A stretch of 32,000 nucleotides of DNA from Candidatus Saccharimonadota bacterium (GCA_001761425.1 CP012986.1:1050001-1082000), one strand, 5' to 3'; counted from the stretch's first letter, positions 768-22,551 are shown. The notes: generated by a model from the letters alone, not told the origin. A program made the numbers and translations.

Positions 768-776
768 GTGATAAAA

Positions 777-1043
777 ATGGGAAAGTTTTTCACAGACCAG
801 TTCGAGCATTATATGGACAATATTGAGAACACTGTAAACGAGTTCGTATTGGTTGTCCTGTCGTTCGGAGCGATCATGGCGACACTCTACACAGTTACTA
901 ACGGCGCACAGTATGACTGGGTAAGCTTTGGACGTATACTCTTCCCATGGGTCTCGATGCTGGCACTGATGATCATAGCGAGAGAGCTCTGGCTCCTAAA
1001 CAACAAAGTCGAACACTACATTAGACAGCAGTCAGGTGAATAA
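777..1043 (+). CDS. small membrane protein (88 aa), unknown function
   Basis: The ORF track starts at GTG 768, but an SD-like AGGTGAT (764-770) sits 6 nt before ATG 777. There are two hydrophobic helices (LVVLSFGAIMATLYTV; ILFPWVSMLALMIIA). Confidence 0.55.
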   Translation: MGKFFTDQFEHYMDNIENTVNEFVLVVLSFGAIMATLYTVTNGAQYDWVSFGRILFPWVSMLALMIIARELWLLNNKVEHYIRQQSGE

Positions 1044-1048
1044 GTAGA

Positions 1049-1630: not shown

Positions 1631-1636
1631 ATCAGT

Positions 1637-3662: not shown

Positions 3663-5954
3663 ATGCTGGGTGTAAAGAAAGAGATGGTCGATAGAGGTCA
3701 GGGAGATCAGGGTGTATTCGAATACGAATATGATGAAGAGACATCAACCGTAAGAGTCAACACACTCGGCTCAATGTACGGAGCAAGCATAGAGGACTAC
3801 CCAGAAGTCATGGCCCGTGTCATAAACATCCTACAGGAGGTACCCAACGCAGAATCCGTTATACTAGCTGAATCAAGAGAATACGAATACGGAGAGGACC
3901 AGGTAAAGCTCCTAAGAGAAATAGCCAACGCTATACAGGAAATCTCCCGCCAGGGATACATCTCACAGGACGTCAAGACAGAAAAATGCGACCAGATCTA
4001 CAGCGAACACCTGCCAGAAGTCCAGAAAATGGTTTTCAACAAACTCCGAATGGACCCTGTAGGAGCATACGTACAGATCAAAAGAAAGGAACGCCACCTC
4101 AGACAGAAGATGGAAGATGGCTACCCACAGCAACAGAGATGCTGTAAATACTTTCTTCAGGACGTGGTCAAACCTGTCAAAGAAAGAATAGAACAATGTA
4201 AATTTATCCAGCAAGCCCAAGACCAGATCACAGGCCACCACGTCGGAGAAAGAGAGATCTACAGAGAATACTTCCACCCTCTGGTAAGGCCTAACTTCAT
4301 GCTTACCAAGTTCATGTCCCTTCCTCCAGAAAGAGGAGAGGAGATGGAACGCTACGAAATGGATAACATAGACGCAGAAGTCACAGTATACGATGTTCCT
4401 CACAAGACAAGGCCTGTCTACCACATCGATCCACCGGAATTCAATCTTTCAGAAGAAAAATACAACATTCTGGACGCAGCGAGACGTTTTATGGCTTCAC
4501 ACGATCCTCAGGAAGGAGAGTTCGCGGAGCCTGACAAGATGCGTGATGTCTTCCAAAACATTGGACGCGATATGCTGAGAGATGTCGCAAACCAGATGGG
4601 GGTAAGACTGGAAAACGATGAGATGGAACAGCTTGCAAATATACTGAACAGATACACTTCAGGCCTTGGAGTACTGGAACTTTTACTCTCCGATCCGAAG
4701 ATCCAGGACGTCTACATCAACTCCCCGATCGGTGACTCGCCTATCTTCATCTCACATCAGGACTACGAAGAATGTGAGACTAACCTGATACCCACGAAAG
4801 AAGAGGCAGAGTCATGGGCTACACGTTTCAGGATCCAGTCAGGAAGGCCTCTAGATGAAGCGAATCCGGTACTGGACACAGAGACTGAGGTTGAAGGAGG
4901 TAGAGCTCGTGTAGCTGTTATACAGGAAAATCTTTCGCCTGAAGGCCTTGCATTCGCTTTTCGTAGACATCGTTCACGTGCCTGGACTCTGCCTCTGTTC
5001 ATCAACAATGGGATGCTTTCGCCGCTTGCAGCAGCTTTGATATCGTTTATTGTGGATGGTAACCGTTCTGTCCTGTTTGCAGGTACAAGAGGCGCAGGTA
5101 AGTCATCGCTTCTGTCTGCTTCGATGCTCGAGATCATGAAGAGCCACAGAATTGTAACTGTAGAAGATACCCTGGAGTTGCCTGTGCCCCAGATGAATGA
5201 TCTTGGTTACAATATTGAAAGGATGAAGTCCCGTTCTGTTATTACACAGGTGGAAAACGAGATGGGAGCGGATGACGCGATCCGTACCTCTCTCAGATTG
5301 GGTGACTCTGCCCTTGTCATTGGAGAGGTTCGTTCCGAAGAAGCCCAGGCCCTTTACGAGGCAATGCGTGTTGGAGCCGTTGCTAACTTCGTCGGAGGTA
5401 CTATCCACGGCGAAGACGCTTACTCTGTATTCGACCGTGTTGTCAACGACCTGGGAGTTCCTCGTACCTCCTTCAAGGCGACAGATATTGTTGTACAGGT
5501 TAACAAGATTGAAAGTCCTGGAGGTATGGAAACATACCGTCGTGTAACCGGTATCACCGAAGTTCGCAAGGAATGGGAAGACGACCCGCAGGAGGAAAAT
5601 GCTTTCGTGGACCTGATGCGGTACGACAGCAATAAAGACAAGCTTGTGCCGACAGATACTCTGATCAACGGAGAATCTCTCATACTCGGCAGGATCGCCG
5701 AAAACATCAAGGAATGGAAGAACAACTGGGAGGCAGTCTGGAACAATATCCAGTTGAGAAAAGACACAAAAAAGGCGATAGTCGATAAATACAAAGAAAC
5801 AGGAAATGATGAACTGCTTGAAGCAGAATTCGCAGTTAAGGCAAACCAGCAATTCCACATCATAGCTGAAAAAGTCAACGAAGAATACGGGGAACAGGAT
5901 AGAGAAAGGATATACAACAGATGGACGGAATGGTTGGATCAACAGGTGAAGTAA
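3663..5954 (+). CDS. type IV pilus/archaellum-family secretion ATPase (FlaI/PilB/GspE/VirB11 superfamily) with a long N-terminal region
   Basis: 763 aa. Walker A 'FAGTRGAGKSSLLSA' (nt ~5082-5105), Asp box 'IVTVEDTLEL', Walker B 'SALVIGEVRSEEAQA' and His box 'GGTIHGED' appear in the canonical order of secretion ATPases. It is followed immediately by a polytopic platform gene. Confidence 0.9.
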   Translation: MLGVKKEMVDRGQGDQGVFEYEYDEETSTVRVNTLGSMYGASIEDYPEVMARVINILQEVPNAESVILAESREYEYGEDQVKLLREIANAIQEISRQGYISQDVKTEKCDQIYSEHLPEVQKMVFNKLRMDPVGAYVQIKRKERHLRQKMEDGYPQQQRCCKYFLQDVVKPVKERIEQCKFIQQAQDQITGHHVGEREIYREYFHPLVRPNFMLTKFMSLPPERGEEMERYEMDNIDAEVTVYDVPHKTRPVYHIDPPEFNLSEEKYNILDAARRFMASHDPQEGEFAEPDKMRDVFQNIGRDMLRDVANQMGVRLENDEMEQLANILNRYTSGLGVLELLLSDPKIQDVYINSPIGDSPIFISHQDYEECETNLIPTKEEAESWATRFRIQSGRPLDEANPVLDTETEVEGGRARVAVIQENLSPEGLAFAFRRHRSRAWTLPLFINNGMLSPLAAALISFIVDGNRSVLFAGTRGAGKSSLLSASMLEIMKSHRIVTVEDTLELPVPQMNDLGYNIERMKSRSVITQVENEMGADDAIRTSLRLGDSALVIGEVRSEEAQALYEAMRVGAVANFVGGTIHGEDAYSVFDRVVNDLGVPRTSFKATDIVVQVNKIESPGGMETYRRVTGITEVRKEWEDDPQEENAFVDLMRYDSNKDKLVPTDTLINGESLILGRIAENIKEWKNNWEAVWNNIQLRKDTKKAIVDKYKETGNDELLEAEFAVKANQQFHIIAEKVNEEYGEQDRERIYNRWTEWLDQQVK

Positions 5955-8144
5955 ATGCCAGAAAACCCAGAAGATTCTAAAGGAGGCCTGAATGAAAAAG
6001 AAAAGGAAAGGCTTCAGGACGTAATAAACGAGATAAACGAAGACGTCCAGAGGCCTCCCTACGACACAAACGATAACAAAGAAGGTTATTCTCGACAGTA
6101 CAAAGAGTTCAGAAAGGAAGAAGAACAATCTCAAGATCTAACACAGTATGAAACTCTTTGCTACCGGATGGCAGGCCTATTTAATCTAAGTGCTGAAAAA
6201 AGCACCAAGAAAAAACTCCAGCCTTCCATAGATCTTCTCGACTGGGAGATCACTCCCGGCATGGTAGTGTCAGCAACGGCGGGAGTAGGCCTCTTTTCGT
6301 TCATGGCCTGGTTTGTGATCTTCATGCTGAACCTACTGGTCCTGCCTATTATCCCTGTTTCATTACTTGCTATAAGCGTCTTGGCGCCAGTAGGAGCTAC
6401 AGCTTATACGTTCTATCTCCCTATCTTTGCTGCAAAGAACAAGGTTATCCGCTCAAGTGGAGAGATGATACTTTCAATTCTGTACATGGTCATTTACATG
6501 CGTACATCAGCAAACCTGGAGGGAGCGATAAGGTTCGCTGCTCTCAACTTGAAAGGCCCTATCTCAGACGACTTAAAGGGTGTTCTATGGGATGTCGAGT
6601 CAGGTAAGTACAATGAGATCAACAAATCTCTTGAAAACTACACTCAGAAATGGAAGGACTTCAACGAGGATTACCTGGAGTCTCTCAACCTGCTCATAGC
6701 ATCACTGAACGAGCCGAACAAAAAAAGGAGGGACAGACTGATGCAGGATGCTATAGACAACATCCTGGACGGGACAAAGGAAAAGATGAAACACTACGCA
6801 CAGAACCTGGAGACTCCTGTAATGATAATAAACGCTGTCGGAGCCATGCTCCCGGTACTAGGCATGATAATGCTACCACTTATCTCAGCATTCATGGGAG
6901 GAGTCATAACACCTCTGCACCTTCTCATAATGTTCAATATAATGCTCCCGACCTTCCTCTGGATCTTTATGCAGAGAACACTTAGCTCAAGGCCTCCAAC
7001 AGTTTCTTCAAAGCCTTCAAAGAAAGGAAATCTGCCAGACAGAGGAAAATACACGATCAAAGCCATGGACCGGAAAATCTCCGTCCCTACATGGCCTATA
7101 GGCCTCGGAATCTTCTTTATCGTAGGACTCTACGGAATGGCCGGTTACCTTGTCTATCCTCACTTCTACCCTGTTGAAAATATCAATCCTGCTAATGTAC
7201 CAGCAATTTTCCTTGACGGTTCACAGCTCAATGCCTTCCCTATGCTCATGAGAAGCGTTTCAATAGTACTAGGTTTAGGCCTCGGCATAGGCGTGAGCAA
7301 GACTCTTGGTAACAAAGCACGACAGCAAGCAGAAGAAGAGATCCAGAAAATTGAACAGCAGTTCCCTAACGCCCTCTTCGAGCTAGGAAACAATATTTCA
7401 GGAGGAACACCGATAGAACTTGCCTTACAGGACGCTGGACAATCGACAAAAGACCTGGAGATTTCCAACCTGTTTGTTGAGGCCTCTAATAACATCAAAA
7501 ACATGGGTATGACGTTTGAGCAGTCTATCTTTGATGAAGATTACGGTGCTTTGAAGCATTATCCTAGCCAGACTATTGAGACTGTTATGCGTGCTATACT
7601 GTCTTCTTCAAACAAAGGTACAAAGATGGCTTCCACTGCGATGATGACAATTTCGCGGTATCTAGAGAACATCCATGACACCCAGGAACAGCTTAACGAC
7701 CTGATGGAAGATACTACCACTACCATTCAGATGCTTGCATACATGCTGGCTCCGGTGATCTCCGGTGTCGCAGTAGGAATGTCCCAGACCATCATCTCAG
7801 CACTTTACTCACTTGGAGAATCTTTCAGCTCCACACAGCAGAATCTTCCTGATGGAGGAGGCGGAGCAGGAGGAGGCCTCGGCGGTACCGGTATACTTGA
7901 TAACCTGCAGTCCGCTATACCGCCAGAGATGCTTCAGTTCGTAGTTGGAGCATATCTAATCCAGCTACTTTATATACTAGGAACGTTTTACACCAAGATA
8001 ACGCAGGGAGAGGACAAAACCTACAAGAATATGTTCATCGGAAAGATAATGATGTCAGGCCTGTTCTTCTACACAATGACAGTGGTAATCATCAGTCTGA
8101 TGTTCGGAAGCCTCGTAGGAAGTGTAGGATCTAACCTGGGATAG
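5955..8144 (+). CDS. FlaJ/TadC/PilC-like polytopic membrane platform protein
   Basis: 729 aa. ATG directly follows the ATPase stop, with AGGTGA at 5944-5949. An acidic cytoplasmic N-terminus is followed by two blocks of TM helices separated by soluble segments. The family call rests on topology and its obligatory position next to the ATPase, not on a signature motif. Confidence 0.72.
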   Translation: MPENPEDSKGGLNEKEKERLQDVINEINEDVQRPPYDTNDNKEGYSRQYKEFRKEEEQSQDLTQYETLCYRMAGLFNLSAEKSTKKKLQPSIDLLDWEITPGMVVSATAGVGLFSFMAWFVIFMLNLLVLPIIPVSLLAISVLAPVGATAYTFYLPIFAAKNKVIRSSGEMILSILYMVIYMRTSANLEGAIRFAALNLKGPISDDLKGVLWDVESGKYNEINKSLENYTQKWKDFNEDYLESLNLLIASLNEPNKKRRDRLMQDAIDNILDGTKEKMKHYAQNLETPVMIINAVGAMLPVLGMIMLPLISAFMGGVITPLHLLIMFNIMLPTFLWIFMQRTLSSRPPTVSSKPSKKGNLPDRGKYTIKAMDRKISVPTWPIGLGIFFIVGLYGMAGYLVYPHFYPVENINPANVPAIFLDGSQLNAFPMLMRSVSIVLGLGLGIGVSKTLGNKARQQAEEEIQKIEQQFPNALFELGNNISGGTPIELALQDAGQSTKDLEISNLFVEASNNIKNMGMTFEQSIFDEDYGALKHYPSQTIETVMRAILSSSNKGTKMASTAMMTISRYLENIHDTQEQLNDLMEDTTTTIQMLAYMLAPVISGVAVGMSQTIISALYSLGESFSSTQQNLPDGGGGAGGGLGGTGILDNLQSAIPPEMLQFVVGAYLIQLLYILGTFYTKITQGEDKTYKNMFIGKIMMSGLFFYTMTVVIISLMFGSLVGSVGSNLG

Positions 8145-8148
8145 AAAG

Positions 8149-8328
8149 ATGAACGACTGGATACTCGAAAAGATAGCGGACGAATGGAGCAAAGGAGGAA
8201 TCACAGCCAGGAAACTGGTCCTGATAGTCATCGGTGTATCCGTAACTGCAATAGTCATAATGACCATAAGAAGCGGGATAGAAAGCGCCTACACTGAAGG
8301 CCTCGAGAACGCACTGGAGAACCATTAA
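8149..8328 (+). CDS. small (59 aa) pilin-like/single-pass protein, below the ORF-track cut-off
   Basis: ATG lies 4 nt after the platform gene stop. Translation is MNDWILEKIADEWSKGGITARKLVLIVIGVSVTAIVIMTIRSGIESAYTEGLENALENH, with KGG followed by a ~20-aa hydrophobic helix. Confidence 0.45.
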   Translation: MNDWILEKIADEWSKGGITARKLVLIVIGVSVTAIVIMTIRSGIESAYTEGLENALENH

Positions 8329-8355
8329 AAACAATCGAGAACAAGTTGGTTATCA

Positions 8356-9462
8356 ATGACAATCAGGGAGAAACTGCTATCCATCCTCTCAAGGATTATC
8401 AGAGGAGTAGACAGCAAACTCCCTGATAACTGGAAATACTACACAGAGACGTTTACAGGCCTTATACTTCTCCTCGCGTCTTTTGGAAGCCTTATACTCG
8501 CTCCAAGATCCTACGTTTCAGGCCTAGCTTTTCTTCTGACAGGTCTTTACATTGTTCCAGATATCCGGTTCAGAGTCCTCTTCAGGTTGAACGTGAGGCC
8601 TCCAAGGTATTCCGTGCCTGTCGTTCTTCTGCTGGGACTGATGGTTGCTGGATTATTCAGCCCTCAGACAGCAGGCGGACTTCTAGGTCCAACATTTGAT
8701 TCTGATGCCGAGATTGATGTTGAAGAACGGCAACCTGTGAAAGCAGTGTCTGGAATCGCAGAGGTAAGGAACAACGGTGCTCAGGACCGTAACTATACTG
8801 TGGGGATCGCGAAAGACGGAGAGCTTGTGGAGAGCAAGACATCTCTGATCGGGTCGAAGGATTCAGAGAAGTTCAACATTACGGTAGAGGTCCAGGATGA
8901 AGGTGAACACAGTGTAAGATTCTATTCAAGCAAGTCAAATGTTTTAACAGAATCAAATAATTCGGGTTTCAGCCTGGAGGAATCAGTTACTCTCCCAAAC
9001 TATCTCAACGAGGAAAATATCAAAAGTTCAGTTCAGCAGTACTCGCCGATACCTCAGAAAGACCTAAGCATTATCCAGAACGTGGAAGTCAACGCAACAG
9101 GAGATGGAAGAAAAATCAGCCTCAGGAACAAGGCAGAAAACACCTACGGAATCTTCGACCTGATGAAGACCGCCACAGCCAACTCCTTCCACACAAGCAA
9201 GCAAATATTCCAGGATTTCCAGGATATAAGCCATGTCAGCGTATCCACTGCAGCCGACTACACATACAGGAACGGCACAGTTCAGGAAAGAGTGATACTT
9301 GAAACAGATCTCTCAGAAGAAGACGCAGAAAACATAAACTGGCAGACCAGGACAGATCAGATAAGAGACGACTACGAATACTGGCTGAACACAACAACCA
9401 GCTATACAATCGAAGAAAACCTCTGCGAAGGCCTCTCAAAAGAGATAAACTGCAGCAGGTAA
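8356..9462 (+). CDS. membrane-anchored surface protein with a CARDB/Ig-like beta-sandwich-type segment
   Basis: 368 aa. About three N-terminal TM helices. It continues with 'VSGIAEVRNNGAQDRNYTVGIAKDGELVESKTSLIGSKDSEKFNITVEVQDEGEHSVRFY', which resembles CARDB-type adhesion domains. Several N-x-S/T sequons. Confidence 0.55.
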   Translation: MTIREKLLSILSRIIRGVDSKLPDNWKYYTETFTGLILLLASFGSLILAPRSYVSGLAFLLTGLYIVPDIRFRVLFRLNVRPPRYSVPVVLLLGLMVAGLFSPQTAGGLLGPTFDSDAEIDVEERQPVKAVSGIAEVRNNGAQDRNYTVGIAKDGELVESKTSLIGSKDSEKFNITVEVQDEGEHSVRFYSSKSNVLTESNNSGFSLEESVTLPNYLNEENIKSSVQQYSPIPQKDLSIIQNVEVNATGDGRKISLRNKAENTYGIFDLMKTATANSFHTSKQIFQDFQDISHVSVSTAADYTYRNGTVQERVILETDLSEEDAENINWQTRTDQIRDDYEYWLNTTTSYTIEENLCEGLSKEINCSR

Positions 9463-9527
9463 AAAAACATGTCAGAAACTCTAAAAACAATTACTAACAG
9501 CAGAAAAGGCCTTCCAGGTGCTTTACC

Positions 9528-12035: not shown

Positions 12036-12110
12036 AAGGCCTTGAAGGCAGCGGTAGAAAACACTTAAATTAGAGAAAAGCGTAATGAATATTCAGAGAA
12101 GGATTACAAG

Positions 12111-12323
12111 GTGATTTCTTCGAACTGGAAAAAGTCAAAGGGACAGGGCGGTATGCCTGTCAAGATCATAGTAGGCCTTCTAATCGCAATTATAATCGGC
12201 GTATTCATGCTTATGTTCCTCCTACCTACGATCAGGGCACAGGAACAGGCAGCTAGCTGTACAGGTATCCTGAGAAGTCTGGGAACTATACTGGCGGACA
12301 TGACCGGTGTATCACTATGCTGA
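12111..12323 (+). CDS. small pilin-like protein (70 aa)
   Basis: GTG start, with ATG 12153 as an alternative. 'KSKGQ|GGMPVKIIVGLLIAIIIGVFMLMFLL' matches the [KR]G[Q] plus hydrophobic-helix pattern of archaeal class III signal peptides. It overlaps the next gene by 7 nt. Confidence 0.6.
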   Translation: MISSNWKKSKGQGGMPVKIIVGLLIAIIIGVFMLMFLLPTIRAQEQAASCTGILRSLGTILADMTGVSLC

Positions 12324-14068
12324 AGACGAGGAAAGGTATCGGTACCGGAACGATAATGAAGCTGGTTCTCGCTCTGATGACTGCCTCACTTTTCATTGGA
12401 GCAGGTACAGTAGGAGACCTTGGATCAGCTTTAGGAGAGGGATTTTCCAGCTTGGGAGAGAGCACAGACTACAGAATTGACCTAGGAGATAATGGAGCAG
12501 AAAAGCTATCCCAAGCAGCTAGATTTGTGAGGATGAGAGCTGGCAATGATGGATGTGCTGAAGATTCCAACTCAGGCCCTTATTCCAGTGTACCGAGTTA
12601 CATAGAGGACGAAGGTTTTTCTGCACTCAGAGATAGCTACATAGGAGAATATCCTACATGTGAGTCCTCGACATCTACCCTTTCAAGAGGTATACAGGGA
12701 GGAATTCAGGAACTGGGACAGGATCAGGAAGGAATATATTCCAGAGTTGCTTTTGAGGTTAAGGAAGAGTTTACTATAACTTCTAACGGAGACACTTGGC
12801 TTGAAGGTGCAGGAGATGACAGCAAGGGAATAAGAGCCGTCGCAGAAGGATCACTAGAATCAAACACTCTTGATAGCTGTGGCGTGGATGCCTTGGATCG
12901 AGCAATTCAGACCGGAGCTGCAGGAGCAGTCCTAGGGGCCAGTACAGGAATAGGGGTAGGAGCGGTTGGAGGAGCAACGATAGGTTTCGTATCTGGAGGT
13001 GTTGGTAATGCAATAGCTGGAGCGGAATTCGTTGGGACAGATGATAAATATGTAATATTTGTTAGACCCGACCAGATGGATCAGAGAACAAACGGCTGGA
13101 TTAACGACGCTGAAAGAGCTAACGGGGACAGTTTCGGATATGGAAACAGATTATACTGCCATGGATTGGGTGATGAAATCAATCTAGATGGACTTCTTAG
13201 TGAAGAACATTTAACCAGATCCCCACTAAGAGCCGCCTATATAGAGTATTACGGTAGTGATGTGCGTTTCCAGTTCTGCCCCGGAGATGAAGGATATATT
13301 CAGATGAACAAAGGAAAGCCTCAGAACGATGCTGAAGCAGGAGAAGACTTACTTGGAGGTGCTCACAAGTTCCCATTTATCGTCATCACTGATAAAGGAG
13401 ACAACTGTGGGGATACGAGCGCTAATGTAGAGGAAAACGTGGCAGACGATGTCAGTCCAACAGGAAACATGTTCTTTGTAGCGATAGACAGCAGTAGCAG
13501 TTACGTTGACTCCAATCCAAACTCCTGGAGTCTGCATGACGACAGTGAAGGCGCAAACGTTGATGGAGCCGTGAGCGAAGGAGGTGCGACAGACGACATT
13601 GAAGCACCTTATGACAACCTTTGCAGAGTAGGTCTGCTTGAAGAAGACGGTAATATCGGAGATGATGGCGATGGCTATGTCGATTATGTAAAGGGAACTG
13701 TTATAGAGAAAGACGGTACTTTCCCTGAGTTAGGAAGCAGTTCAATTCAGTATCGTGCAGAAGAAGTCGCTGTAGAAGAGGAAGGAGGTAATCCAGTAAA
13801 TGATCCTGAAAACACCTATCACGTATACCAGCATCTTGTTAACGACGGATTTGATGGACAGAGCATTAGTGGCGACTACTCTTACCTGCAAGGAGCACAG
13901 TCACCTCACAACCTTGAGCTTAAAGGAGATATGCTCTGTGCGAACACAGCAGGCTTTTCATACTCCAAATGGGTCATGTGTGATCCATCTGCGCCTACAA
14001 AGGAAATCACCGCAGACGGAACCACATACGAATGTAACGAAGGAGAAGGTGACTGGAGAATACAATGA
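12317..14068 (+). CDS. giant pilin-like surface protein (583 aa); paralog of 9528-12035
   Basis: 'MLKTRKG|IGTGTIMKLVLALMTASLFIGA'. Blocks shared with the 835-aa protein include 'FVR.RAGNDGC', 'DSY.G.YP.C', 'EGIYSRV.FEV', 'TWLE', 'CPGD.GYIQMNK' and 'FP.I.I'. It has an internal Gly/Ala-rich insertion and a divergent acidic C-terminal half. Confidence 0.8.
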   Translation: MLKTRKGIGTGTIMKLVLALMTASLFIGAGTVGDLGSALGEGFSSLGESTDYRIDLGDNGAEKLSQAARFVRMRAGNDGCAEDSNSGPYSSVPSYIEDEGFSALRDSYIGEYPTCESSTSTLSRGIQGGIQELGQDQEGIYSRVAFEVKEEFTITSNGDTWLEGAGDDSKGIRAVAEGSLESNTLDSCGVDALDRAIQTGAAGAVLGASTGIGVGAVGGATIGFVSGGVGNAIAGAEFVGTDDKYVIFVRPDQMDQRTNGWINDAERANGDSFGYGNRLYCHGLGDEINLDGLLSEEHLTRSPLRAAYIEYYGSDVRFQFCPGDEGYIQMNKGKPQNDAEAGEDLLGGAHKFPFIVITDKGDNCGDTSANVEENVADDVSPTGNMFFVAIDSSSSYVDSNPNSWSLHDDSEGANVDGAVSEGGATDDIEAPYDNLCRVGLLEEDGNIGDDGDGYVDYVKGTVIEKDGTFPELGSSSIQYRAEEVAVEEEGGNPVNDPENTYHVYQHLVNDGFDGQSISGDYSYLQGAQSPHNLELKGDMLCANTAGFSYSKWVMCDPSAPTKEITADGTTYECNEGEGDWRIQ

Positions 14069-14310
14069 GACTAGTAAAAACCCTGAAATCATCTCTAGAG
14101 AAGAATATTAAAACAGTAAAAAATGTCACAAAATCTATGAAAACAATCGGCAGGACGTTCAAAGGACAGAACTTTTCGATCAAAACCATGGCACTGATAG
14201 TCCTGGGAATAATGGTGGTTGTACTGGTCTACGGAGCCTTCAGCGGATGGTTCGACAACGTTGTGAACAACTTCACCGGGAATATAAACTACCCACAACC
14301 GAGAAGTTAG
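14065..14310 (+). CDS. pilin-like protein (81 aa)
   Basis: ATGA start/stop overlap with the previous gene. '...GRTFKGQ|NFSIKTMALIVLGIMVVVLVYGAF'. An internal ATG at 14137 would give a more typical short leader. Confidence 0.6.
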   Translation: MRLVKTLKSSLEKNIKTVKNVTKSMKTIGRTFKGQNFSIKTMALIVLGIMVVVLVYGAFSGWFDNVVNNFTGNINYPQPRS

Positions 14311-14323
14311 AGGAGGAAAAAGT

Positions 14324-14500
14324 ATGATAGAAGACAGGAAAGGTATAAACTCGACGATCGCCCTCATTATTACGATAGCGGTAGGCCTCATGGTTGTGGT
14401 GATAATAATCTCGATACTTAATACAAACACCGGGTTCCTGGAGAGCTTTGCAAAGGATGGAGTTGACGTGAGCCTTTGGGGCGGGGGCGGAGGATCATGA
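14324..14500 (+). CDS. small pilin-like protein (58 aa), below the ORF-track cut-off
   Basis: Strong SD GAGGAGG lies 7 nt upstream. 'MIEDRKG|INSTIALIITIAVGLMVVVIIISIL...', ending in GGGGGS. Its stop overlaps the next ATG (ATGA). Confidence 0.55.
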   Translation: MIEDRKGINSTIALIITIAVGLMVVVIIISILNTNTGFLESFAKDGVDVSLWGGGGGS

Positions 14501-14730
14501 GGACTTCGATCCAGGCCTTGATAGCGCTTGTATTGGTTCTCATGGTTGTTGTAGGGATTTATGCAGCTGGTTCAGGCGTCTTCGGCGCTGCCGGTTCGAA
14601 CATCGAAAATGAGGGAAACGAATCCGGTAACCGTCTGGAGTGTATATTCGCTAACCCTGAAAGCTCGGACAGTGCCTGTAGAACCCAGTCAGGCCTGGAG
14701 GTGAATGAGAGAGATGTTTTCGAGGCTTAG
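14497..14730 (+). CDS. small pilin-like/N-terminal-helix protein (77 aa)
   Basis: The ORF track starts at TTG 14476, but GGAGGATC immediately precedes ATG 14497, which also overlaps the upstream stop. 'MRTSIQALIALVLVLMVVVGIYAAG'; two Cys in the C-terminal part. Confidence 0.55.
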   Translation: MRTSIQALIALVLVLMVVVGIYAAGSGVFGAAGSNIENEGNESGNRLECIFANPESSDSACRTQSGLEVNERDVFEA

Positions 14731-15199
14731 AAAAGGTACCAACTCCGGTATGCCAATAATCGCAGTTGTAGCTGTAATAGGTTCCCTGGCCGGTATGGGA
14801 GTGATTTTCCAGGTTATCGGCGGGGTAGGGACTGAAACCGGACAGGATCATGATAGAAGGGAATTAAATGACATTGGCTCTGCAATCGAGAACAAATGCA
14901 CCGATGTGGCAGGGAATAGTGACACATCTTCAGTTACTTCTATAGACGTAAGCGTTGATTTAAAGACAGACAGTGAACTAGGATCGGCATCTGGAGAAAG
15001 TGGAGAAGGAGAATACATCAGTGAACTGGAGCTAAGTTTCTCTGACAGTACGGAAACATATGATCTTCCTTCAGATAGCTGTGATATCGAATGGATGAAC
15101 GATACTCTTGGAACCGGACAGTATCAGTTCACTGTATCTCAGGATGGCTACAGCGACAGTGATAATGATGTACCTATCATAAGGGTGGAAGCTAACTGA
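14714..15199 (+). CDS. pilin-like protein (161 aa)
   Basis: GGAGGTGA (14697-14704) abuts ATG 14705, so ATG 14714 has the better spacing of 9 nt. 'MFSRLRKG|TNSGMPIIAVVAVIGSLAGMGVIF'; acidic C-terminal domain. Confidence 0.65.
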   Translation: MFSRLRKGTNSGMPIIAVVAVIGSLAGMGVIFQVIGGVGTETGQDHDRRELNDIGSAIENKCTDVAGNSDTSSVTSIDVSVDLKTDSELGSASGESGEGEYISELELSFSDSTETYDLPSDSCDIEWMNDTLGTGQYQFTVSQDGYSDSDNDVPIIRVEAN

Positions 15200-15603
15200 T
15201 GAAGAATAAGGGCCAGACCACCATTCCCTTCACAGTGATTGAAGCTGCAACCACAATGCTGATGATCCTGATGATAGTCTACGGGAACCAGGCACACACA
15301 AACGACTTTGTCAAGCAGGAAACGCTCAATCTCCAAGTTGATCGTGTGACAAATGCAGCACTGGCCCTGAACTCAATGCATCAGGGATACGTTGAGATAG
15401 ATATGTCCGGATACGAGTTCAAATACGGGAACGGTAACGTAACAATGAGATACAATGACAAGCAATATACTTCTGAGATAGATCAGAACATGATCAATTA
15501 CAATGATATCAACGGGCCTTCAGAGTTTGAACAGGTAAACGGCACCATGTGCTTGCGAAAAACAGAGGCAAACCATCTAGATATTGCAGCGAGTGAATGC
15601 TAG
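15199..15603 (+). CDS. pilin-like protein (134 aa)
   Basis: TGATG stop/start overlap. 'MKNKGQ|TTIPFTVIEAATTMLMILMIVYG' is a textbook class III signal-peptide-like N-terminus. Confidence 0.7.
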   Translation: MKNKGQTTIPFTVIEAATTMLMILMIVYGNQAHTNDFVKQETLNLQVDRVTNAALALNSMHQGYVEIDMSGYEFKYGNGNVTMRYNDKQYTSEIDQNMINYNDINGPSEFEQVNGTMCLRKTEANHLDIAASEC

Positions 15604-16107
15604 ATGGACCTCTACAACCTGGTGATGAAGATTCCGTACATACTGATGATCCTGGTAGGGATAACCTTCATCATACAGCTCTACGTAGGAGGCCTCAACA
15701 ACCTCTCCATAGATATAGACAACTACAACGAGGGAGAGTACAGAAGCACCATCGTGCTCGAGAATGCTCTTTCAGTTGAGGAAAACGCCACCGAAAACCT
15801 CGACTACAGTTACGATCACAGGAGAGGCGTCATACCAATAGAGTTCTTCACCCAGAAACTGGAGGATGTAGACAACGAACCAGGCTACAAGAAAAACGGA
15901 GATCACTGCTATATACCACGGGTCGGAGGCCTTGACGGCGAAAACTTTGCGTTCTATATCATTAACCTGGATGCTGATGACATGTCGCCAGGCCTCGAAT
16001 GCAGCAGTGATGAGTCAGGAGACAGGTTAAAAACTGTGTTCAGTCCTGTTCTTCTTGTCCAAGACGGTGACCCGGTGCCAGCGAGGTTGTATATCTATGA
16101 AAGATAG
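15604..16107 (+). CDS. N-terminally anchored surface protein (167 aa), pilus-operon member
   Basis: ATG directly follows the previous stop. 'MDLYNLVMKIPYILMILVGITFIIQLYVGG' is a hydrophobic helix without an obvious KG cleavage motif. Confidence 0.6.
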   Translation: MDLYNLVMKIPYILMILVGITFIIQLYVGGLNNLSIDIDNYNEGEYRSTIVLENALSVEENATENLDYSYDHRRGVIPIEFFTQKLEDVDNEPGYKKNGDHCYIPRVGGLDGENFAFYIINLDADDMSPGLECSSDESGDRLKTVFSPVLLVQDGDPVPARLYIYER

Positions 16108-16690
16108 AAAAGGCCAAGGAATAATTATCGAAGTCCTGGCATTCGCAATGTCAATGATGCTAGCTATAATTGTATTCTACGTTATGCTCAGCACCGGAGG
16201 AGTCACCGAACAGAAAGCCGAAGAGTCAATAAGCTATGAACTTGGAGAACTGAAGAAACGTTCAGCTATAAGCGCAACTATGAACGATCACATCTGGAGG
16301 ATTGACAGTGTAGACAAAGGCAAGTACGCTGAATGGCCAGCATACAAAGTAATCTCCCACTACCTGTCAACACCAGGCGATACAATGCACATATACGATG
16401 AAGAAATAGACATGGATGAAGCCGAAGAAGACTTACTGAACTACCTCGAACACAAGATGAACAAATACTGGCAGGAAGGACCCAACAACGTAGACTACCA
16501 ATTAGATGCTGTCTACGCTGAGGCCTCTTCAAGGCCTGAAAACCTGTCAGTCGGAACTTATGAGCCGACAGGCGAAGGAGGAAGGATATCATACCCTCTC
16601 AGCCTCACAGACGGAAGAGAAGCAGAAATAGGCCTCTGGACATCAAACACACAGAGCATTCAGACAGTAGGTGGTGCAGATCAGTCTTAA
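16097..16690 (+). CDS. pilin-like protein (197 aa)
   Basis: The track start (16055) is a non-ATG codon. ATG 16097 gives 'MKDRKGQ|GIIIEVLAFAMSMMLAIIVFYVML', a classical class III signal-peptide-like N-terminus. It overlaps the previous gene by 11 nt. Confidence 0.7.
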   Translation: MKDRKGQGIIIEVLAFAMSMMLAIIVFYVMLSTGGVTEQKAEESISYELGELKKRSAISATMNDHIWRIDSVDKGKYAEWPAYKVISHYLSTPGDTMHIYDEEIDMDEAEEDLLNYLEHKMNKYWQEGPNNVDYQLDAVYAEASSRPENLSVGTYEPTGEGGRISYPLSLTDGREAEIGLWTSNTQSIQTVGGADQS

Positions 16691-17999
16691 GAAAAAACTG
16701 AAGAAAGGCACATTCTCTGGAGTAATCCCGATGATGGGTATGTTCATCATGGCAGCACTCATGGCATTCCAGTCCGTACCGATAGGTCAAGCGGTAGGAA
16801 ACGAACTGACAGCCTCATTTTCAGATCTCAGCCGTATAGCAGAGACCAAATCCTACGGAGACCTCTACTTCTTCAACTTCGTCCCTAACGGCGCAGAACA
16901 CTCTCTAAACAATGTAAGTCACTCTCTCGCAAAGAACGGGGGCGACGTCTCCTGGAGCTACAACGACTTCGATGCTGAAAACGATATAAGGCCTGAAGTA
17001 GAGAGCAAGCTCAGCACTATAATCGGAGACAAACTCGAACCGATGACGGAAAACTACTTCAACGAAAAATACGGCGGTGTTTCACAGGGAAGCGGCTGCA
17101 CAATATACGAAATCAACTACACTACAATACCCCTGCCCGACTCAGATAATAACTACGTCCAAGGCGTTCAGAACAACCCTGAAGACATACCAATGATCGT
17201 CAGATCACAGGTCGAGACTAGCGGCTACTTCAACGTAGATGCTGCACCGATGGAGGTCGAATGCGCCAATGACCAGGGAGCCACAAAATACATCGGAGAC
17301 ACACAGACAGACTCAGATACCACTTCAACGACCTCTACAGGAGTAGGAACAGGAGGCCTTGGACTGGGAAGCTTTGGATTCGGAGGCCTCGGAATCGGGT
17401 TCTTACCAGGAGACTGGACCAGCGTAGGCTATACCAACAAAGTTGAAGCGACAGCAAACAGATTTCATGTACTGGCCAACAGGACGACATACATCTACAA
17501 GAGAGTCCATGACAACTGGGTAAACAACGTAGAAGAGGTTTCCAACACGGAAGAAGACGTGTGTGATCCCAGCGACAGCGACTGGCAGTCCGTCGAATCA
17601 GAAACGGTAAACGACGTGAACTCTGACGTAACAGACCAGTTCAACAACGTAGTCAACAGTGAAGTAGATATCGAAGGAGTCTCAGGACAGTTCGACCTAG
17701 AAACCTACGCCTTAAACTTCGACTATGACGACTACACTAAGAACTACCTTGGAGAAGCCAGTTACAGCACCAGCGACCACGAAGACTGTGACTGCGATAC
17801 CTGTTACGATAGTGACGGTGATCCTTACGACTGCAACTGCGATACAGAAAAAGATCTGACCGTCACAGTGACCCCAAACGCCTCGATAATGAGGTCAAAC
17901 ATCACCGACGACGATTTCAAAGTTAACACCGCTGAAGGATGGAAGAACCTTAAGTTCACCGTAGAAAACTACAATCACGACTTCCAGGACGACGACTGA
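16671..17999 (+). CDS. large pilin-like surface protein (442 aa) with a Gly-rich segment and a Cys/Asp-rich Ca-binding-like motif
   Basis: GTG start. 'KKLKKG|TFSGVIPMMGMFIMAALMAF'. Internal 'GVGTGGLGLGSFGFGGLGIGFLPG'. Near the C-terminus, 'CDCDTCYDSDGDPYDCNCD'. Last gene of the operon. Confidence 0.7.
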   Translation: MVQISLKKKLKKGTFSGVIPMMGMFIMAALMAFQSVPIGQAVGNELTASFSDLSRIAETKSYGDLYFFNFVPNGAEHSLNNVSHSLAKNGGDVSWSYNDFDAENDIRPEVESKLSTIIGDKLEPMTENYFNEKYGGVSQGSGCTIYEINYTTIPLPDSDNNYVQGVQNNPEDIPMIVRSQVETSGYFNVDAAPMEVECANDQGATKYIGDTQTDSDTTSTTSTGVGTGGLGLGSFGFGGLGIGFLPGDWTSVGYTNKVEATANRFHVLANRTTYIYKRVHDNWVNNVEEVSNTEEDVCDPSDSDWQSVESETVNDVNSDVTDQFNNVVNSEVDIEGVSGQFDLETYALNFDYDDYTKNYLGEASYSTSDHEDCDCDTCYDSDGDPYDCNCDTEKDLTVTVTPNASIMRSNITDDDFKVNTAEGWKNLKFTVENYNHDFQDDD

Positions 18000-18011
18000 A
18001 AGACTCTAACC

Positions 18012-18020
18012 TATAAAAAA
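18012..18020 (+). promoter_or_regulatory. TATA box upstream of the Alba gene
   Basis: TATAAAAAA lies 34 nt upstream of GTG 18055. A short leader carries AGTGAT (SD-like). Confidence 0.45.
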
Positions 18021-18054
18021 TTCGACGAAAAAAGCCTAGAATAAGTGATAACCA

Positions 18055-18342
18055 GTGCCCGAAGAACAAGAAGACGACAACACAGTATATGTCGGATCCA
18101 AACCAGCAATGAGCTACGTTCTAGCAGTAGTCACACAATTTAGCGAAGGACAAGACCTAGTGCACGTCAAAGCAAGAGGAAAAGCAATCAGCCGTGCAGT
18201 AGACGTCGCAGAAATCGTAAAAGACAGATTCGTCGAAGAGGCAACAGTCGACGACATCAGCATCGGAACCGATCAGATCGAGACCGATGAAGGCGACAAG
18301 ATCAACGTTTCCTCAATCCAGATAGACCTCGAAAAACCATAA
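18055..18342 (+). CDS. albA: Alba (Sso10b) chromatin/DNA-RNA-binding protein
   Basis: '[21 protein letters not shown]...[24 protein letters not shown]...[10 protein letters not shown]' matches the conserved Alba core. GTG 18055 is the only start after the in-frame stop at 18049. Confidence 0.9.
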
Positions 18343-18373
18343 ACAATTCGAGGCCTACCATCTTACTTCTTTA

Positions 18374-18378
18374 TTTTT
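18374..18378 (+). terminator. oligo-T tract after the Alba gene
   Basis: CTTTATTTTTCC lies about 30 nt after the stop. Confidence 0.35.
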
Positions 18379-18393
18379 CCCGAAGAGGAAGGA

Positions 18394-18401
18394 TTTTTAT
18401 A
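18394..18401 (+). promoter_or_regulatory. TATA box for the stand-alone pilin genes
   Basis: TTTTTATA lies 22 nt upstream of ATG 18424, the same geometry as other leaderless genes in this window. Confidence 0.5.
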
Positions 18402-18423
18402 CCATCAGAGAAATAATTGCTAT

Positions 18424-18753
18424 ATGACACAAAGAAAGGGCCTCTCACAGATCCTATACCTCATAATCGCAGCATCCGTACTGATGATGGTCGCACTATC
18501 ACTAATCTTCATGTTCAACGACTCAGTCAGCGGAAGCACAGGCGATACACAAGCATGCAATACAGCAGTAGAGACCCAGTGCTCAGTGGCAGGAGCAAAC
18601 AACATTCCCCCGCCCCCCAACTGTGTAACCGAAGACGGACAGGGTAATAAACAGCTCATTAACGGACTCAGCTATCAACATACGGGCGAGTTCGGAGGAA
18701 GTGGAGAAGATGCAAAGGTAATTGTGTGTCCAGGTAACTCAGCCAATAACTGA
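18424..18753 (+). CDS. pilin-like protein (109 aa), Cys-containing; candidate major subunit
   Basis: 'MTQRKG|LSQILYLIIAASVLMMVALSLIFMF' is class III signal-peptide-like. Four Cys and a PPPP turn lie in the short extracellular part. It has its own TATA box. Confidence 0.7.
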   Translation: MTQRKGLSQILYLIIAASVLMMVALSLIFMFNDSVSGSTGDTQACNTAVETQCSVAGANNIPPPPNCVTEDGQGNKQLINGLSYQHTGEFGGSGEDAKVIVCPGNSANN

Positions 18754-18761
18754 TGATATAA

Positions 18762-19043
18762 ATGGACAAGACCCTTGAGATCATAATCGCCGCAACAGTC
18801 ATCCTGCTTACAGCCGGACTGATAATGTTCATGGTCAGCGGTCAGAGCGGAGACTTCCAAAGCTGGCTGAACAACACCCAAGGCGACGCCGAATGCAGCC
18901 TCAAAAAGACACAATACGAGAATGCATGTGACTGCGGGTCGGACAATCCAGGTAATCAGGAAGCCCAAAACATCAAATCAAATGTCCAAAATCAGTGTGA
19001 CTGGACTGACCAAATAAACGACTGCGAAGCGGCCTGTAATTAA
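18762..19043 (+). CDS. Cys-rich pilin-like/N-terminal-helix protein (93 aa)
   Basis: 'MDKTLEIIIAATVILLTAGLIMFMVSGQ' is followed by seven Cys in 50 aa (ECSLKK...ACDCG...CDW...CEAACN). It starts 8 nt after the previous stop. Confidence 0.6.
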   Translation: MDKTLEIIIAATVILLTAGLIMFMVSGQSGDFQSWLNNTQGDAECSLKKTQYENACDCGSDNPGNQEAQNIKSNVQNQCDWTDQINDCEAACN

Positions 19044-22532: not shown

Positions 22533-22551
22533 TCTAACCCGCAGTTAACGG

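Follow-up and report, generated by a model that had tools for sequence, protein, structure and literature searches.

DPANN archaea spend their lives attached to host cells; to our knowledge, few of the molecules that make and specify this contact have been described. Bacterial competence (ComG) and type II secretion pseudopili consist of one major and several distinct minor pilins, and the Epd pili of Methanococcus maripaludis (TFF 'system 1') have varied pilins with KG/Q leaders (slash, cleavage point) encoded beside an ATPase/platform pair, with the major pilin encoded apart. In the cluster-2 DPANN CCP locus (Hamm et al. 2019/2024), two CCP genes stand beside a CpaF/FlaI-like ATPase and a TadC-like platform. 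The available text of Hamm et al. 2024 (Nat Commun, PMC11291902) reports this ATPase/TadC/coiled-coil core without filament genes, assigns FlaF and PilA to one of two loci and none to the locus with CCP, ATPase and TadC only, and draws a parallel between the CCPs and sigma-1, a viral attachment protein. The same studies also describe proteins of these loci in the Ca. Nanohaloarchaeum antarcticus proteome and propose a role in host interaction (PMC6642349, PMC11291902). In the haloarchaeal pili of subsystem 4F/4C, a coiled-coil protein of the cytoplasm, arCOG07564, serves as an accessory (Makarova, Koonin and Albers 2016, PMC4858521), and the ATPase clade also occurs in 'nanoarchaea', where pilins could not be identified (PMC4858521). 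Bacterial modular pilins are large subunits with an adhesin module grafted on the pilin N-terminus (PMC8179133, PMC9934059).

The window analysed here is a 32,000-nucleotide stretch from Ca. Nanopetramus SG9 (Nanohaloarchaea archaeon SG9), a tiny, halophilic archaeon. Positions 3663-19043 hold a type IV pilus-like cluster of one secretion ATPase of the hexameric type, one platform protein and 16 further plus-strand genes (Table 1), and the conserved unit also takes in Alba and two divergently transcribed coiled-coil proteins. An earlier note on this DNA had counted one ATPase, one platform and about 13-15 pilin-like subunits; all were located, with the pilin-like products numbering about 14. 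It had also ascribed leaders to nearly all products. At the pattern level the class III signal is present in 11 of the 16 downstream products, which combine a short basic leader ending in [KR]G with a single hydrophobic N-terminal helix directly behind it (59, 835, 70, 583, 81, 58, 164, 134, 211, 442 and 109 aa); the others are three leaderless helix-bearing products (84/77, 167 and 93 aa), one multi-TM protein and Alba. The trait shared by the ~14 small-to-large products is thus the pilin-type N-terminus alone, and the leader is missing in some. We consider it likely that the region encodes a pilus-like type IV filament machine whose design is specific to DPANN archaea, known here from its genes. 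This reading, which agrees with the type IV pilus-like apparatus first suggested, is based on the ATPase/platform pair, the enriched and conserved KG-plus-helix N-termini, the leaderless paralogues that start at the +1 residue, and the preservation of the arrangement across phyla.

Table 1. Features of the SG9 locus (window coordinates; a slash marks the predicted cleavage point).
Feature	Coordinates	Strand	Description	Basis or remark
u91	768-1043	+	Small membrane protein	Synteny with cluster
u193	1049-1630	+	Small membrane protein, 5-TM, paralogue of u163	Synteny with cluster
u163	1637-2128	+	Small membrane protein, 5-TM, paralogue of u193	Synteny with cluster
CCP307	2221..3144	-	Coiled-coil protein	Near-threshold Pfam FlaC_arch, synteny
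CCP143	3198..3629	-	Coiled-coil protein	Divergent from ATPase gene, 33-nt spacer
ATPase	3663..5954	+	Secretion ATPase, FlaI/GspE/CpaF superfamily, 763 aa	T2SSE, PDB relatives
Platform	5955..8144	+	Long-form platform protein, TadC/FlaJ/PilC family, 729 aa	T2SSF, orthologues PF00482
s59	8149..8328	+	Tiny pilin-like, ...EWSKG/GITARKLVLIVIG	KG + single TM segment
m368	8356..9462	+	2-3 TM segments, 368 aa, no KG, not pilin-like	
L835	9528..12035	+	Large acidic pilin-like, SSKG/MGIGGILKLTLALM, 12 Cys	Paralogue of L583
s70	12111..12323	+	Small pilin-like, KKSKG/QGGMPVKIIVGLL	KG + helix
L583	12317..14068	+	Large variable pilin-like, MLKTRKG/IGTGTIMKLVLALM	KG + helix
s81	14065..14310	+	Small pilin-like, ...RTFKG/QNFSIKTMALIVLG	KG + helix
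s58	14324..14500	+	Small pilin-like, MIEDRKG/INSTIALIITIAVG	KG + helix; GGAGG site upstream
s84	14476..14730	+	Small, N-terminal helix, leaderless	Likely ATG 14497, MRTSIQALIALV
p164	14705..15199	+	Mid-size pilin-like, FSRLRKG/TNSGMPIIAVVAVIG	KG + helix; GGAGGTGA upstream
p134	15199..15603	+	Mid-size pilin-like, MKNKG/QTTIPFTVIEAATTML	Strict FlaFind-type core
p167	15604..16107	+	N-terminal helix, never KG, MDLYNLVMKIPYILMILVG	Orthologues start MDLYN consistently
p211	16055..16690	+	Mid-size pilin-like, MKDRKG/QGIIIEVLAF	Likely ATG 16097
L442	16671..17999	+	Large pilin-like, KKLKKG/TFSGVIPMMGMFIM, 8 Cys	KG + helix
Alba	18055..18342	+	DNA/RNA-binding chromatin protein	Pfam Alba E = 1.7e-20
TATA-like box	18394..18402	+	TTTTTATAC, archaeal TATA-like box	~22 nt upstream of p109 ATG
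p109	18424..18753	+	109 aa, MTQRKG/LSQILYLIIAASVLMM + small Cys-containing C-terminal domain	First gene after Alba
p93	18762..19043	+	Leaderless paralogue of p109, MDKTLEIIIAATVIL, 6 Cys	BLASTP with p109

Of the components expected in the type IV filament (TFF) superfamily, a PilB/GspE/FlaI-family ATPase and a PilC/TadC/FlaJ-family polytopic platform are both present. The ATPase matches Pfam T2SSE over the curated cut-off (E = 1.1e-16), and the boxes on which its identification as a FlaI/PilB-type ATPase had been founded are legible in the translation (Walker A GTRGAGKS, Asp box VTVEDTLE, Walker B ALVIGEVR, His box GTIHGE). Matches in the PDB comprise 2OAP, 4II7 and 8RKD, the closest solved relatives being afGspE (2OAP; 4e-27, residues 322-663), FlaI and CpaF; the N-terminal ~300 aa are without any match. 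Identity among ATPase orthologues is 75-83% inside the phylum and 44-57% between DPANN phyla. The platform protein, rightly recognised before as FlaJ/TadC-like, aligns with T2SSF over two stretches for a total of 22.3 bits, slightly below the cut-off of 25.2, and PF00482 is precomputed on most of its orthologues (60-66% identical). A search with the platform returned 370 cluster representatives with E < 1e-30, and among the matches listed the best were mostly full-length.

CCP307 has a Q-rich N-terminal half and a C-terminal half that forms a FlaC-like coiled coil (Pfam FlaC_arch, E = 4.5e-6; 27.4 bits, where the cut-off is 27.8), and homologues occupy the equal position in loci L053, L062, L063 and L079; neither a TM segment nor a signal peptide was found in it. 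CCP143 gave only matches of the coiled-coil type in Pfam, and a partner of 125-150 aa stands at its position in every locus examined. As far as the available text of Hamm et al. 2024 (PMC11291902) describes them, the two correspond to its CCP genes. With no export signal in either and one of them FlaC-like, the two proteins probably act on the cytoplasmic side as a scaffold for the motor, judging from their sequences. The resemblance to FlaI and FlaC raises the alternative of a reduced archaellum, a rotary swimming organelle of the kind implied by the original SG9 genome paper, in which motility was inferred from 'archaeal flagellar protein' annotations (10.1101/029934). FlaI is the best NCBIfam match of the ATPase, and CCP307 falls just short of the FlaC family threshold. 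However, the FlaI match reaches 135 bits against an equivalog cut-off of 550, and profile searches detected neither archaellin nor FlaF/G/H (ArlF/G/H) in the 32-kb window, in line with the earlier note; the equal point has been made for Ca. Nha. antarcticus (Hamm et al. 2019, PMC6642349). We therefore regard an archaellum as very improbable.

Further upstream, the positions of u91, u193 and u163 are kept in 35-44 loci, some outside Nanohaloarchaeota, their tie to the cluster being one of synteny only. Pfam was searched with all three and no family matched. None has an invariant Asp, so they were ruled out as aspartyl prepilin peptidases.

The evidence that the downstream products are pilin-like comes from their N-termini as a class. 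In 27 nanohaloarchaeal loci, 333 proteins inside the cluster and 119 outside it begin with a helix; [KR]G was located <=14 residues from the first TM segment in 184 of the former and 3 of the latter (Fisher p = 1e-28). Across these loci, orthologues in at least eight families retain the KG motif, and at the pattern level this supports the proposal of class III prepilin-type leaders followed by a ~20-aa helix. The h-regions of these helices span 20-25 residues, and several N-termini carry 4-8 mixed residues between the Gly and the hydrophobic core. Leaderless members (p93 and members of the s81, s58 and s84 families) start exactly at the +1 residue predicted from KG-bearing relatives. Cleavage, which had been drawn behind the Gln of KGQ, should fall behind Gly (KG/Q). 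A FlaFind/PilFind-type check gave a divided result: the strict FlaFind-type core is matched by one of 14 N-termini (p134), and the looser [KR]G plus helix by 11.

Pilin and class III signal HMMs from Pfam and NCBIfam matched no product of the 32-kb window. Class_IIIsignal/DUF361, Pilin_N and the NCBIfam archaeal flagellin/pilin N-terminal models likewise matched 0 of 132 orthologues, and the same pilin HMM families matched none of the cross-phylum proteins adjoining Alba; a Tad/Flp check yielded one platform gene in place of separate TadB and TadC proteins, no TadE match and two weak Flp1_like matches among 132 proteins, and so gave no sign of a Tad/Flp pilus. A24 prepilin peptidases were found neither in the window, where the earlier note had also reported none, nor along ~57 kb of contig from the 1.125-Mb SG9 genome, nor beside the clusters of the other loci. 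The sole A24-like gene found, in L075, scores 25.6 bits against a cut-off of 26.5 and lies beside a related platform in a differently organised cluster. The lack of a pilin HMM or structural match and of a nearby peptidase would suit N-terminal helices that are ordinary signal anchors or Sec signals, their prepilin likeness being coincidental. That reading, already disfavoured, is hardly credible in view of the motif enrichment, the tight linkage with a secretion ATPase and platform across phyla, h-regions too long for Sec signals, and paralogues that begin at the predicted +1 residue.

The small and mid-size subunits recur at fixed positions. In nearly all loci a KG protein of 37-83 aa follows the platform in the s59 slot, and s70 orthologues (58-79 aa, KG present) stand directly ahead of the large variable gene. 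Orthologues of s81 have either an RKG leader or a direct start at MEVSIKT or MELSIKT; those of p134 keep KG and those of p211 a K[GA] motif. The s84 product is 77 aa in the JGI call, and its true start is probably ATG 14497, as its orthologues begin M-[RND]-x-S-[IV] with no KG. For m368, BLAST finds no counterpart in any other locus and Pfam no family, and it is, on this comparison, specific to the SG9 lineage.

Three subunits are much larger. L835 and L583 are 30% identical (E = 5e-50); L835 retains its SSKG leader only if translation begins at TTG 9528, a start backed by the alignment of the two paralogues. L583 combines a conserved ~360 aa N-terminal domain containing four invariant Cys with a variable C-terminal part, and only 17 homologues were found. 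In a comparison of AlphaFold models of the kind proposed in the earlier note, the L583 model, too poor to be usable (AF2 pLDDT 41.6), had no fold match. The L442 slot holds a KG protein of 313-513 aa directly before Alba in nanohaloarchaeal loci, in a family with a mean pairwise identity of 20%. Large extracellular proteins with class III-like leaders adjoining an ATPase/platform pair could represent, in place of fibre subunits, surface proteins tethered by their pilin-type helix and arranged by that pair, as has been proposed for the Sulfolobus Bas system and for SPIII-bearing binding proteins, and a 2026 preprint argues for archaeal TFF machines being often functionalised with SPIII-bearing proteins (10.64898/2026.04.22.720090). 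Yet a substrate-binding or enzyme domain occurs in none of the products, seven of the 14 are 58-109 aa and extend barely beyond the helix and a short tail, and the invariant helix of p109 (see below) is as expected of a polymerising subunit. An arrangement of this bindosome-like kind is accordingly improbable.

Gene order is common to all Nanohaloarchaeota, and together with 'MKG' leaders it extends to Aenigmatarchaeota, Nanoarchaeota and Asbonarchaeaceae, so that the synteny check suggested beforehand came out positive both within the phylum and in other DPANN phyla. A dozen or more pilins in one locus had been called unusual; the large number is real, but it is the norm for this DPANN system and not a peculiarity of SG9. 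Within the phylum, identity is 64-78% for the motor proteins and only 17-21% for the exported ones, a divergence expected for surface-exposed parts. Cys residues are conserved in the p109 and L583 families.

Starts and stops of several genes overlap or abut, with GGAGG/GGTGA-type sites, as had been described. The accompanying claim of a single translationally coupled unit does not hold for the run: TATA-like boxes precede Alba and the 109-aa gene, and for this reason it probably comprises three transcription units. A T-run after Alba stands just ahead of the TTTTTATAC box, which in 19 of 20 aligned loci precedes the ATG of the orthologous gene by 22-31 nt and is usually present once per ~20-kb locus.

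The gene behind this box is the best candidate for the major pilin. The p109 N-terminus, KGLSQILYLIIAA, is invariant at K5 and L7-A17 in 42 sequences, and the AF2 model (pLDDT 71) has a long kinked N-terminal helix (7-35, 39-56) and four short strands. Foldseek returned no match with E < 1 for this model, and the family profile had no match among PDB sequences; hhalign aligned p109 with the small MKG proteins adjoining Alba in other phyla (probability 85%, E = 6.5e-6). The invariant helix, the gene's own consensus TATA box, the helix-plus-sheet model and the cross-phylum relatives make p109 most likely the bulk subunit, although the assignment is a guess; proteins of 45-80 aa could alternatively be the major subunit, by analogy with Flp in Tad pili. 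In p93, M1 aligns with p109 L7 (BLASTP, E = 8e-6), an in-frame TAA lies directly 5' of the ATG, and orthologues begin MDKT.

The Alba gene inside the cluster was overlooked in the earlier note. Alba adjacency is found in most nanohaloarchaeal loci and in six loci in other DPANN phyla, and Alba is no pilus component by any known logic. Retention of a nucleic-acid-binding protein gene inside the cluster across phyla, the ComG-like order of ATPase, platform and pilins, and the many distinct, positionally conserved minor-pilin-like families in place of tandem copies of one pilin would fit a short pseudopilus that works like a piston and takes up or exports macromolecules (for example host DNA, nucleotides or lipids) instead of a long adhesive pilus. 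Nucleotide and lipid synthesis are missing in DPANN archaea, for which an import by way of pili has been suggested (PMC9563170). On the other hand, a ComEA/ComEC-like channel, a secretin analogue and a substrate gene were not found in the cluster, Alba is a general chromatin protein whose adjacency may merely reflect conserved gene order, and the hypervariable giant subunits suit adhesins better than piston parts. A pseudopilus is thus unlikely, though less so than the other alternatives.

We therefore favor a type IV filament that works as follows. Precursors would insert into the membrane, and a signal peptidase of class III (A24), whose gene would lie elsewhere, would cut behind the Gly of the leader. 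The ATPase/platform pair, with the coiled-coil proteins as its putative cytoplasmic scaffold, would then pull the helices out of the membrane and stack them into a surface filament in which p109 would be the bulk subunit. The remaining families, distinct, positionally conserved and fast-evolving, may be minor pilins that prime or cap the fibre, and the 442-835 aa members may be modular pilins displaying variable, disulfide-containing adhesin domains. Since Nanohaloarchaeota depend on haloarchaeal hosts, we infer that attachment to the haloarchaeal host cell is the most likely role of the fibre, in agreement with the proposal of Hamm et al. (PMC6642349, PMC11291902), and the cluster is probably a cell-contact organelle of Nanohaloarchaeota and other DPANN archaea. 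More tentatively, and with the odds against it, the cluster might be an ancestral DPANN host-contact organelle of 10-16 distinct subunits, more than in any characterised pilus or pseudopilus, built from families invisible to pilin models, some of them made with no leader and thereby bypassing the prepilin peptidase; the hypervariable, modular giants would set host specificity, the fibre might even assist in breaching the host envelope, and the conserved Alba gene would mark chromatin or RNA co-regulation with host engagement.

Few surface machines are kept universally by the reduced DPANN genomes, and this cluster is among them. Current pilin HMMs and FlaFind-type rules overlook whole families of its subunits, which explains statements that DPANN archaea 'lack annotated pilins'.

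With respect to known systems, the locus shares with the archaellum a FlaI-like ATPase, a FlaJ-like platform and a FlaC-like coiled-coil protein, and differs in having no ArlH, ArlF/G or archaellins and an ATPase far under the FlaI equivalog threshold. The ComG operon, T2SS pseudopilins and Streptococcus sanguinis PilB/PilC follow the same logic of ATPase, platform, and major plus distinct minor pilins; these bacterial sets belong to another domain of life, have no sequence relation to the SG9 proteins and number 5-7 subunits compared with 14, and in SG9 some subunits are leaderless and there is no conserved Glu5. The coiled-coil proteins, putatively cytoplasmic, recall by description the accessory of 4F/4C pili; the SG9 platform is much longer, and the SG9 pilins show no sequence relationship with the PilA/arCOG02911 families. 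As in Epd pili, several different class III-leader proteins are encoded beside the ATPase and platform, and the gene of the candidate major pilin stands separate from those of the minor pilins. Two platform genes, a peptidase of its own (EppA) and pilins of a recognised family mark the Epd locus, whereas in SG9 the platform is single and long, a peptidase was not found nearby, the subunits match no pilin HMM, and they are about twice as numerous.

The cluster-2 CCP locus is of the same type, its arrangement being met in SG9 and in other Nanohaloarchaeota, Aenigmatarchaeota and Nanoarchaeota loci; in Ca. Nha. antarcticus the ATPase orthologue Halo_Nar1_01710 (1249 aa, intein) is two gene numbers from the CCP NAR1_01690. 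In contrast to the sigma-1 likeness given in the available text of Hamm et al. 2024, SG9 CCPs without export signal, one of them FlaC-like, suggest a cytoplasmic role. The ~14 KG-leader genes, leaderless paralogues, Alba linkage, 5-TM genes and p109 promoter are additions to what that text describes. Taken together, they extend the ATPase, TadC and CCP locus to a full parts list of a candidate major pilin, a dozen putative minor pilins and variable adhesin-like giants, which are concrete targets in the cultivated Nanohaloarchaeum-Halorubrum and Nanohalobium systems.

The type IV pilus-like operon described in the earlier note was confirmed: a secretion ATPase, a platform protein and 14 pilin-like products are encoded in the cluster (see table). 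Eleven of the 16 products downstream of the platform (59, 835, 70, 583, 81, 58, 164, 134, 211, 442 and 109 aa) begin with a KG leader, a short charged stretch ending in [KR]G directly before a single N-terminal hydrophobic helix, and three more (84/77, 167 and 93 aa) have the helix with no leader. The earlier count of 13-15 pilin-like products thus stands, but that inventory had overlooked the Alba gene and a 368-aa protein. KGQ, the pattern of EppA-dependent Methanococcus pilins, is present in four products. The motif was then counted in 27 nanohaloarchaeal loci, taking as in-cluster all ORFs other than Alba from the platform to ~750 nt past the Alba gene end. An N-terminal TM segment is present in 333 of 346 in-cluster ORFs, and [KR]G lies no more than 14 residues upstream of it in 184 of these 333. 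Outside the cluster, the same loci have it in 3 of 119 proteins with an N-terminal TM segment (Fisher p = 1e-28, for loci that are related and hence not independent). The position of the motif is kept among orthologues otherwise only 17-21% identical. The [KR]G motif in the cluster exceeds chance, and its enrichment, together with a conserved gene order, supports the pilus-like interpretation.

Several families occur in two forms, with and without the leader, such as KG/LDMSIKT and MEVSIKT (the slash precedes the residue predicted to follow cleavage). The candidate major pilin, p109, reads RKG/LSQILYL, and its paralogue p93 reads MDKTLEII; the Met of p93 aligns with L7 of p109, and a TAA directly 5' of the p93 ATG means that no upstream extension is possible. 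The first residue of the leaderless forms is precisely the one expected after cleavage, which is good indirect evidence that KG leaders would be cleaved after Gly. Pfam and NCBIfam scans found no pilin family in any cluster product, in 132 orthologues or in cross-phylum proteins adjoining Alba, and no curated HMM or solved structure recognised any subunit.

No A24 prepilin peptidase was found in the window, as the earlier note had stated, nor on the contig between ~1,050 and 1,098 kb (which includes a walk to 10 kb past the window end), nor flanking any orthologous cluster. Scanning all multi-TM ORFs of 85 loci and the window for the G.GD motif gave nothing convincing. When 29 multi-TM ORFs of unexplained identity were scanned with Pfam, there was a single near-threshold A24 match, in locus L075 from a deep-sea 'Nanohalarchaeota' MAG. 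No other prepilin-peptidase-like gene turned up near any homologue; its cluster is differently laid out, and a metagenome scan with it returned no match but itself. None of the three upstream membrane proteins has a family match or an invariant acidic residue. Two of them, the 5-TM paralogues u193 and u163, were considered as a divergent aspartyl peptidase and rejected because they have no invariant Asp.

Features of the window and of homologous loci (TM, transmembrane)
Feature	Sequence	Coordinates	Strand	Remarks
Three membrane protein genes	Window	768-2128		91 aa; 193- and 163-aa 5-TM paralogues; adjoin coiled-coil genes in 35-44 loci, other DPANN phyla included
Cluster	Window	3663-19043	+	18 genes, almost gapless
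Gene 1, secretion ATPase	Window		+	Pfam T2SSE, E = 1.1e-16
Gene 2, platform	Window		+	729 aa; two weak T2SSF stretches; most orthologues carry PF00482
Glycine-rich insert of platform	Window	7800-7850		Residues ~620-640, DGGGGAGGGLGGTG, between predicted TM segments
Start of 835-aa gene	Window	9528-9545		TTG start at 9528 backed by alignment with 583-aa paralogue; public call begins at ATG 9543 (830 aa), losing the SSKG leader
368-aa product	Window		+	2-3 TM segments
Second copy of 8-mer	Window	18012-18019	-	Spacer before Alba
Alba	Window	18055-18342	+	Among the 16 downstream products
p109 box	Window	18394-18402		TTTTTATAC
340-aa acidic protein	Window	19040-20062	-	Twin-arginine and lipobox-like N-terminus RRYVLQTLGALGTGGLAGC; between last pilin-like gene and iPGM; absent from this position in L003-L005
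Two extremely acidic coiled-coil proteins	Window	21672-24401		286 and 590 aa, just past iPGM; L003-L005 have similar-size genes there (491-533 aa)
A24-like region	L075	4556-8738		Related long platform, then 360-aa gene, then 8-TM protein near Peptidase_A24 (25.6 vs 26.5 bits)
Intein-bearing ATPase orthologues (~1250-1470 aa)	L006; L063; L026	6223-9969; 6245-9976; 1148-5563 (LAGLIDADG homing endonuclease Pfam-confirmed)		

Adjoining or overlapping genes (gaps of -53 to +75 nt) extend from the ATPase as far as the 442-aa gene, and GGAGG/GGTGA sites stand upstream of several, in agreement with the overlapping starts and stops and Shine-Dalgarno-type sites reported earlier. A TATA-like box stands before each of the ATPase, Alba and p109 genes, however, and the cluster therefore probably comprises three transcription units rather than the single one proposed. 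In 19 of 20 aligned nanohaloarchaeal loci, the p109-type ATG has the TTTTTATAC box 22-31 nt upstream. The box is preceded by a T-run after Alba and is usually present as a single copy per ~20 kb; the 8-mer TTTTTATA has only two copies in the 32-kb window. This pattern would fit a separately transcribed, strongly expressed p109 gene whose leader is short or lacking.

The start of the p109 family, K-G-L-S-Q-I-L-Y-L-I-I-A-A, is invariant in 42 sequences, three Cys are conserved, and p109 is the best-conserved exported protein (mean identity 39%). In an AF2 model (pLDDT 71), the N-terminal helix is long and kinked, and there are four short strands. The family profile had no match among PDB sequences, and a Foldseek search of PDB with the model returned nothing under E = 3. 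Profile comparison related p109 to the 'MKG/MSIPIN' proteins (~100 aa) that neighbour Alba in other phyla, at 85% probability and E = 6.5e-6. By analogy with Flp, the very small subunits (45-80 aa) may alternatively provide the major subunit; p109 is the candidate put forward here.

Eighty genome loci were collected, and a conserved gene order, for which the earlier note had suggested a check, was found throughout Nanohaloarchaeota and, for most of the plan, in other DPANN phyla. In Nanohaloarchaeota, three small membrane proteins and two opposite-strand coiled-coil genes are followed by the ATPase and platform, one or two tiny KG proteins, one or two large variable proteins (320-890 aa), three small proteins of 40-80 aa, four mid-size ones of 125-220 aa and a single large one of 313-513 aa; after these come Alba, a p109-type gene, one or two of the p93 type, and iPGM on the opposite strand. 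SG9, the source of the window, departs from this order by a duplicated small-plus-large pair and the extra 368-aa gene. Most of the plan recurs in Aenigmatarchaeota (L047, L057, L065, L078, L079), Nanoarchaeota (L062, L063), Asbonarchaeaceae (L038) and L053, as 5-TM genes, the coiled-coil pair, ATPase, platform and 10-16 proteins whose leaders are a minimal MKG/MKKG, some of them giants of 500-1200 aa; in individual loci some flanking genes are absent or out of reach. Alba follows the last large pilin-like gene and precedes the gene of the candidate major pilin. This adjacency is kept in Nanohaloarchaeota and in six loci of other DPANN phyla (L038, L047, L057, L063, L065, L078), in which Alba ends the series. 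It is a standard Alba and was rejected as a pilus component. Contig JBLGBK010000001.1 (L080), assigned to a 'Colwellia polaris' MAG, carries a typical nanohaloarchaeal cluster, with Alba, the p109 type and a 67% identical platform, and is almost certainly mis-binned.

Nanohaloarchaea archaeon SG9 bears the name Ca. Nanopetramus SG9, and its genome (1.1 Mb) was recovered from Atacama halite (10.1101/029934). The GC content is ~46%, and most predicted products are strongly acidic, small hydrophobic ones excepted. AQV86_05790 matches the 109-aa product at 100% identity, and the ATPase gene lies on the 1,125,078-bp JGI contig Ga0136257_100001. The nearest solved relatives of the ATPase are A. fulgidus GspE (2OAP), FlaI and CpaF, matched over residues ~300-706; no match was found for the first ~300 residues. 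Its identity is 75-83% inside the phylum and 44-57% between phyla. The platform is 59-66% identical across more than 100 nanohaloarchaeal proteins, and its relatives at E < 1e-30 comprise 370 cluster representatives (25-43% identity among the matches listed, mostly full-length). A LAGLIDADG intein is present in the ATPase of many lineages, including the 1249-aa copy of Ca. Nha. antarcticus, and length suggests one in L010, L020, L022, L034, L038, L047, L072 and L055; the SG9 copy is intein-free.

The divergently transcribed coiled-coil proteins CCP307 and CCP143 have no TM segment and no signal peptide, and CCP307 scores 27.4 bits against FlaC_arch (threshold 27.8). For both, we therefore prefer a cytoplasmic, motor-associated role to the one that Hamm et al. 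(PMC11291902) suggested, sigma-1-like attachment from an exposed position.

In the duplicated small-plus-large pair of SG9 (59 + 835 aa and 70 + 583 aa), the 835- and 583-aa proteins are paralogues (E = 5e-50). The 583-aa subunit has only 17 detectable homologues, which share a conserved N-terminal domain of ~360 aa with four invariant Cys and motifs such as CPGDEGYIQMNK; the C-terminal part is variable, and length and sequence at this position differ widely between genomes. An AF2 model from an 18-sequence alignment reached pLDDT 41.6, and the fold search with it gave only noise and no assignable fold. The pattern agrees with a variable adhesin joined to a pilin N-terminus, a design seen in bacterial modular pilins.

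Taken together, these results support reading the cluster as a variant type IV filament machine specific to DPANN, with either adhesion to a host or uptake as candidate functions; an archaellum reading was rejected. Hamm et al. 2019 (PMC6642349) detected FlaI, FlaJ and an 'archaellin' by proteomics of Ca. Nha. antarcticus and interpreted them as a pilus. Hamm et al. 2024 (PMC11291902) reported that two pilus-like loci containing coiled-coil proteins are conserved in cluster-2 DPANN, filament genes being given for one only in the accessible part of that paper. Makarova et al. 2016 (PMC4858521) placed an ATPase clade in 'nanoarchaea' whose pilins were not findable, pilins were not annotated in related MAGs (PMC9563170), and this gene arrangement is not described in a 2026 TFF survey (10.64898/2026.04.22.720090). 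The core of the locus is therefore already known from earlier papers, whereas the set of filament genes, like the remaining features given here, appears to be new.
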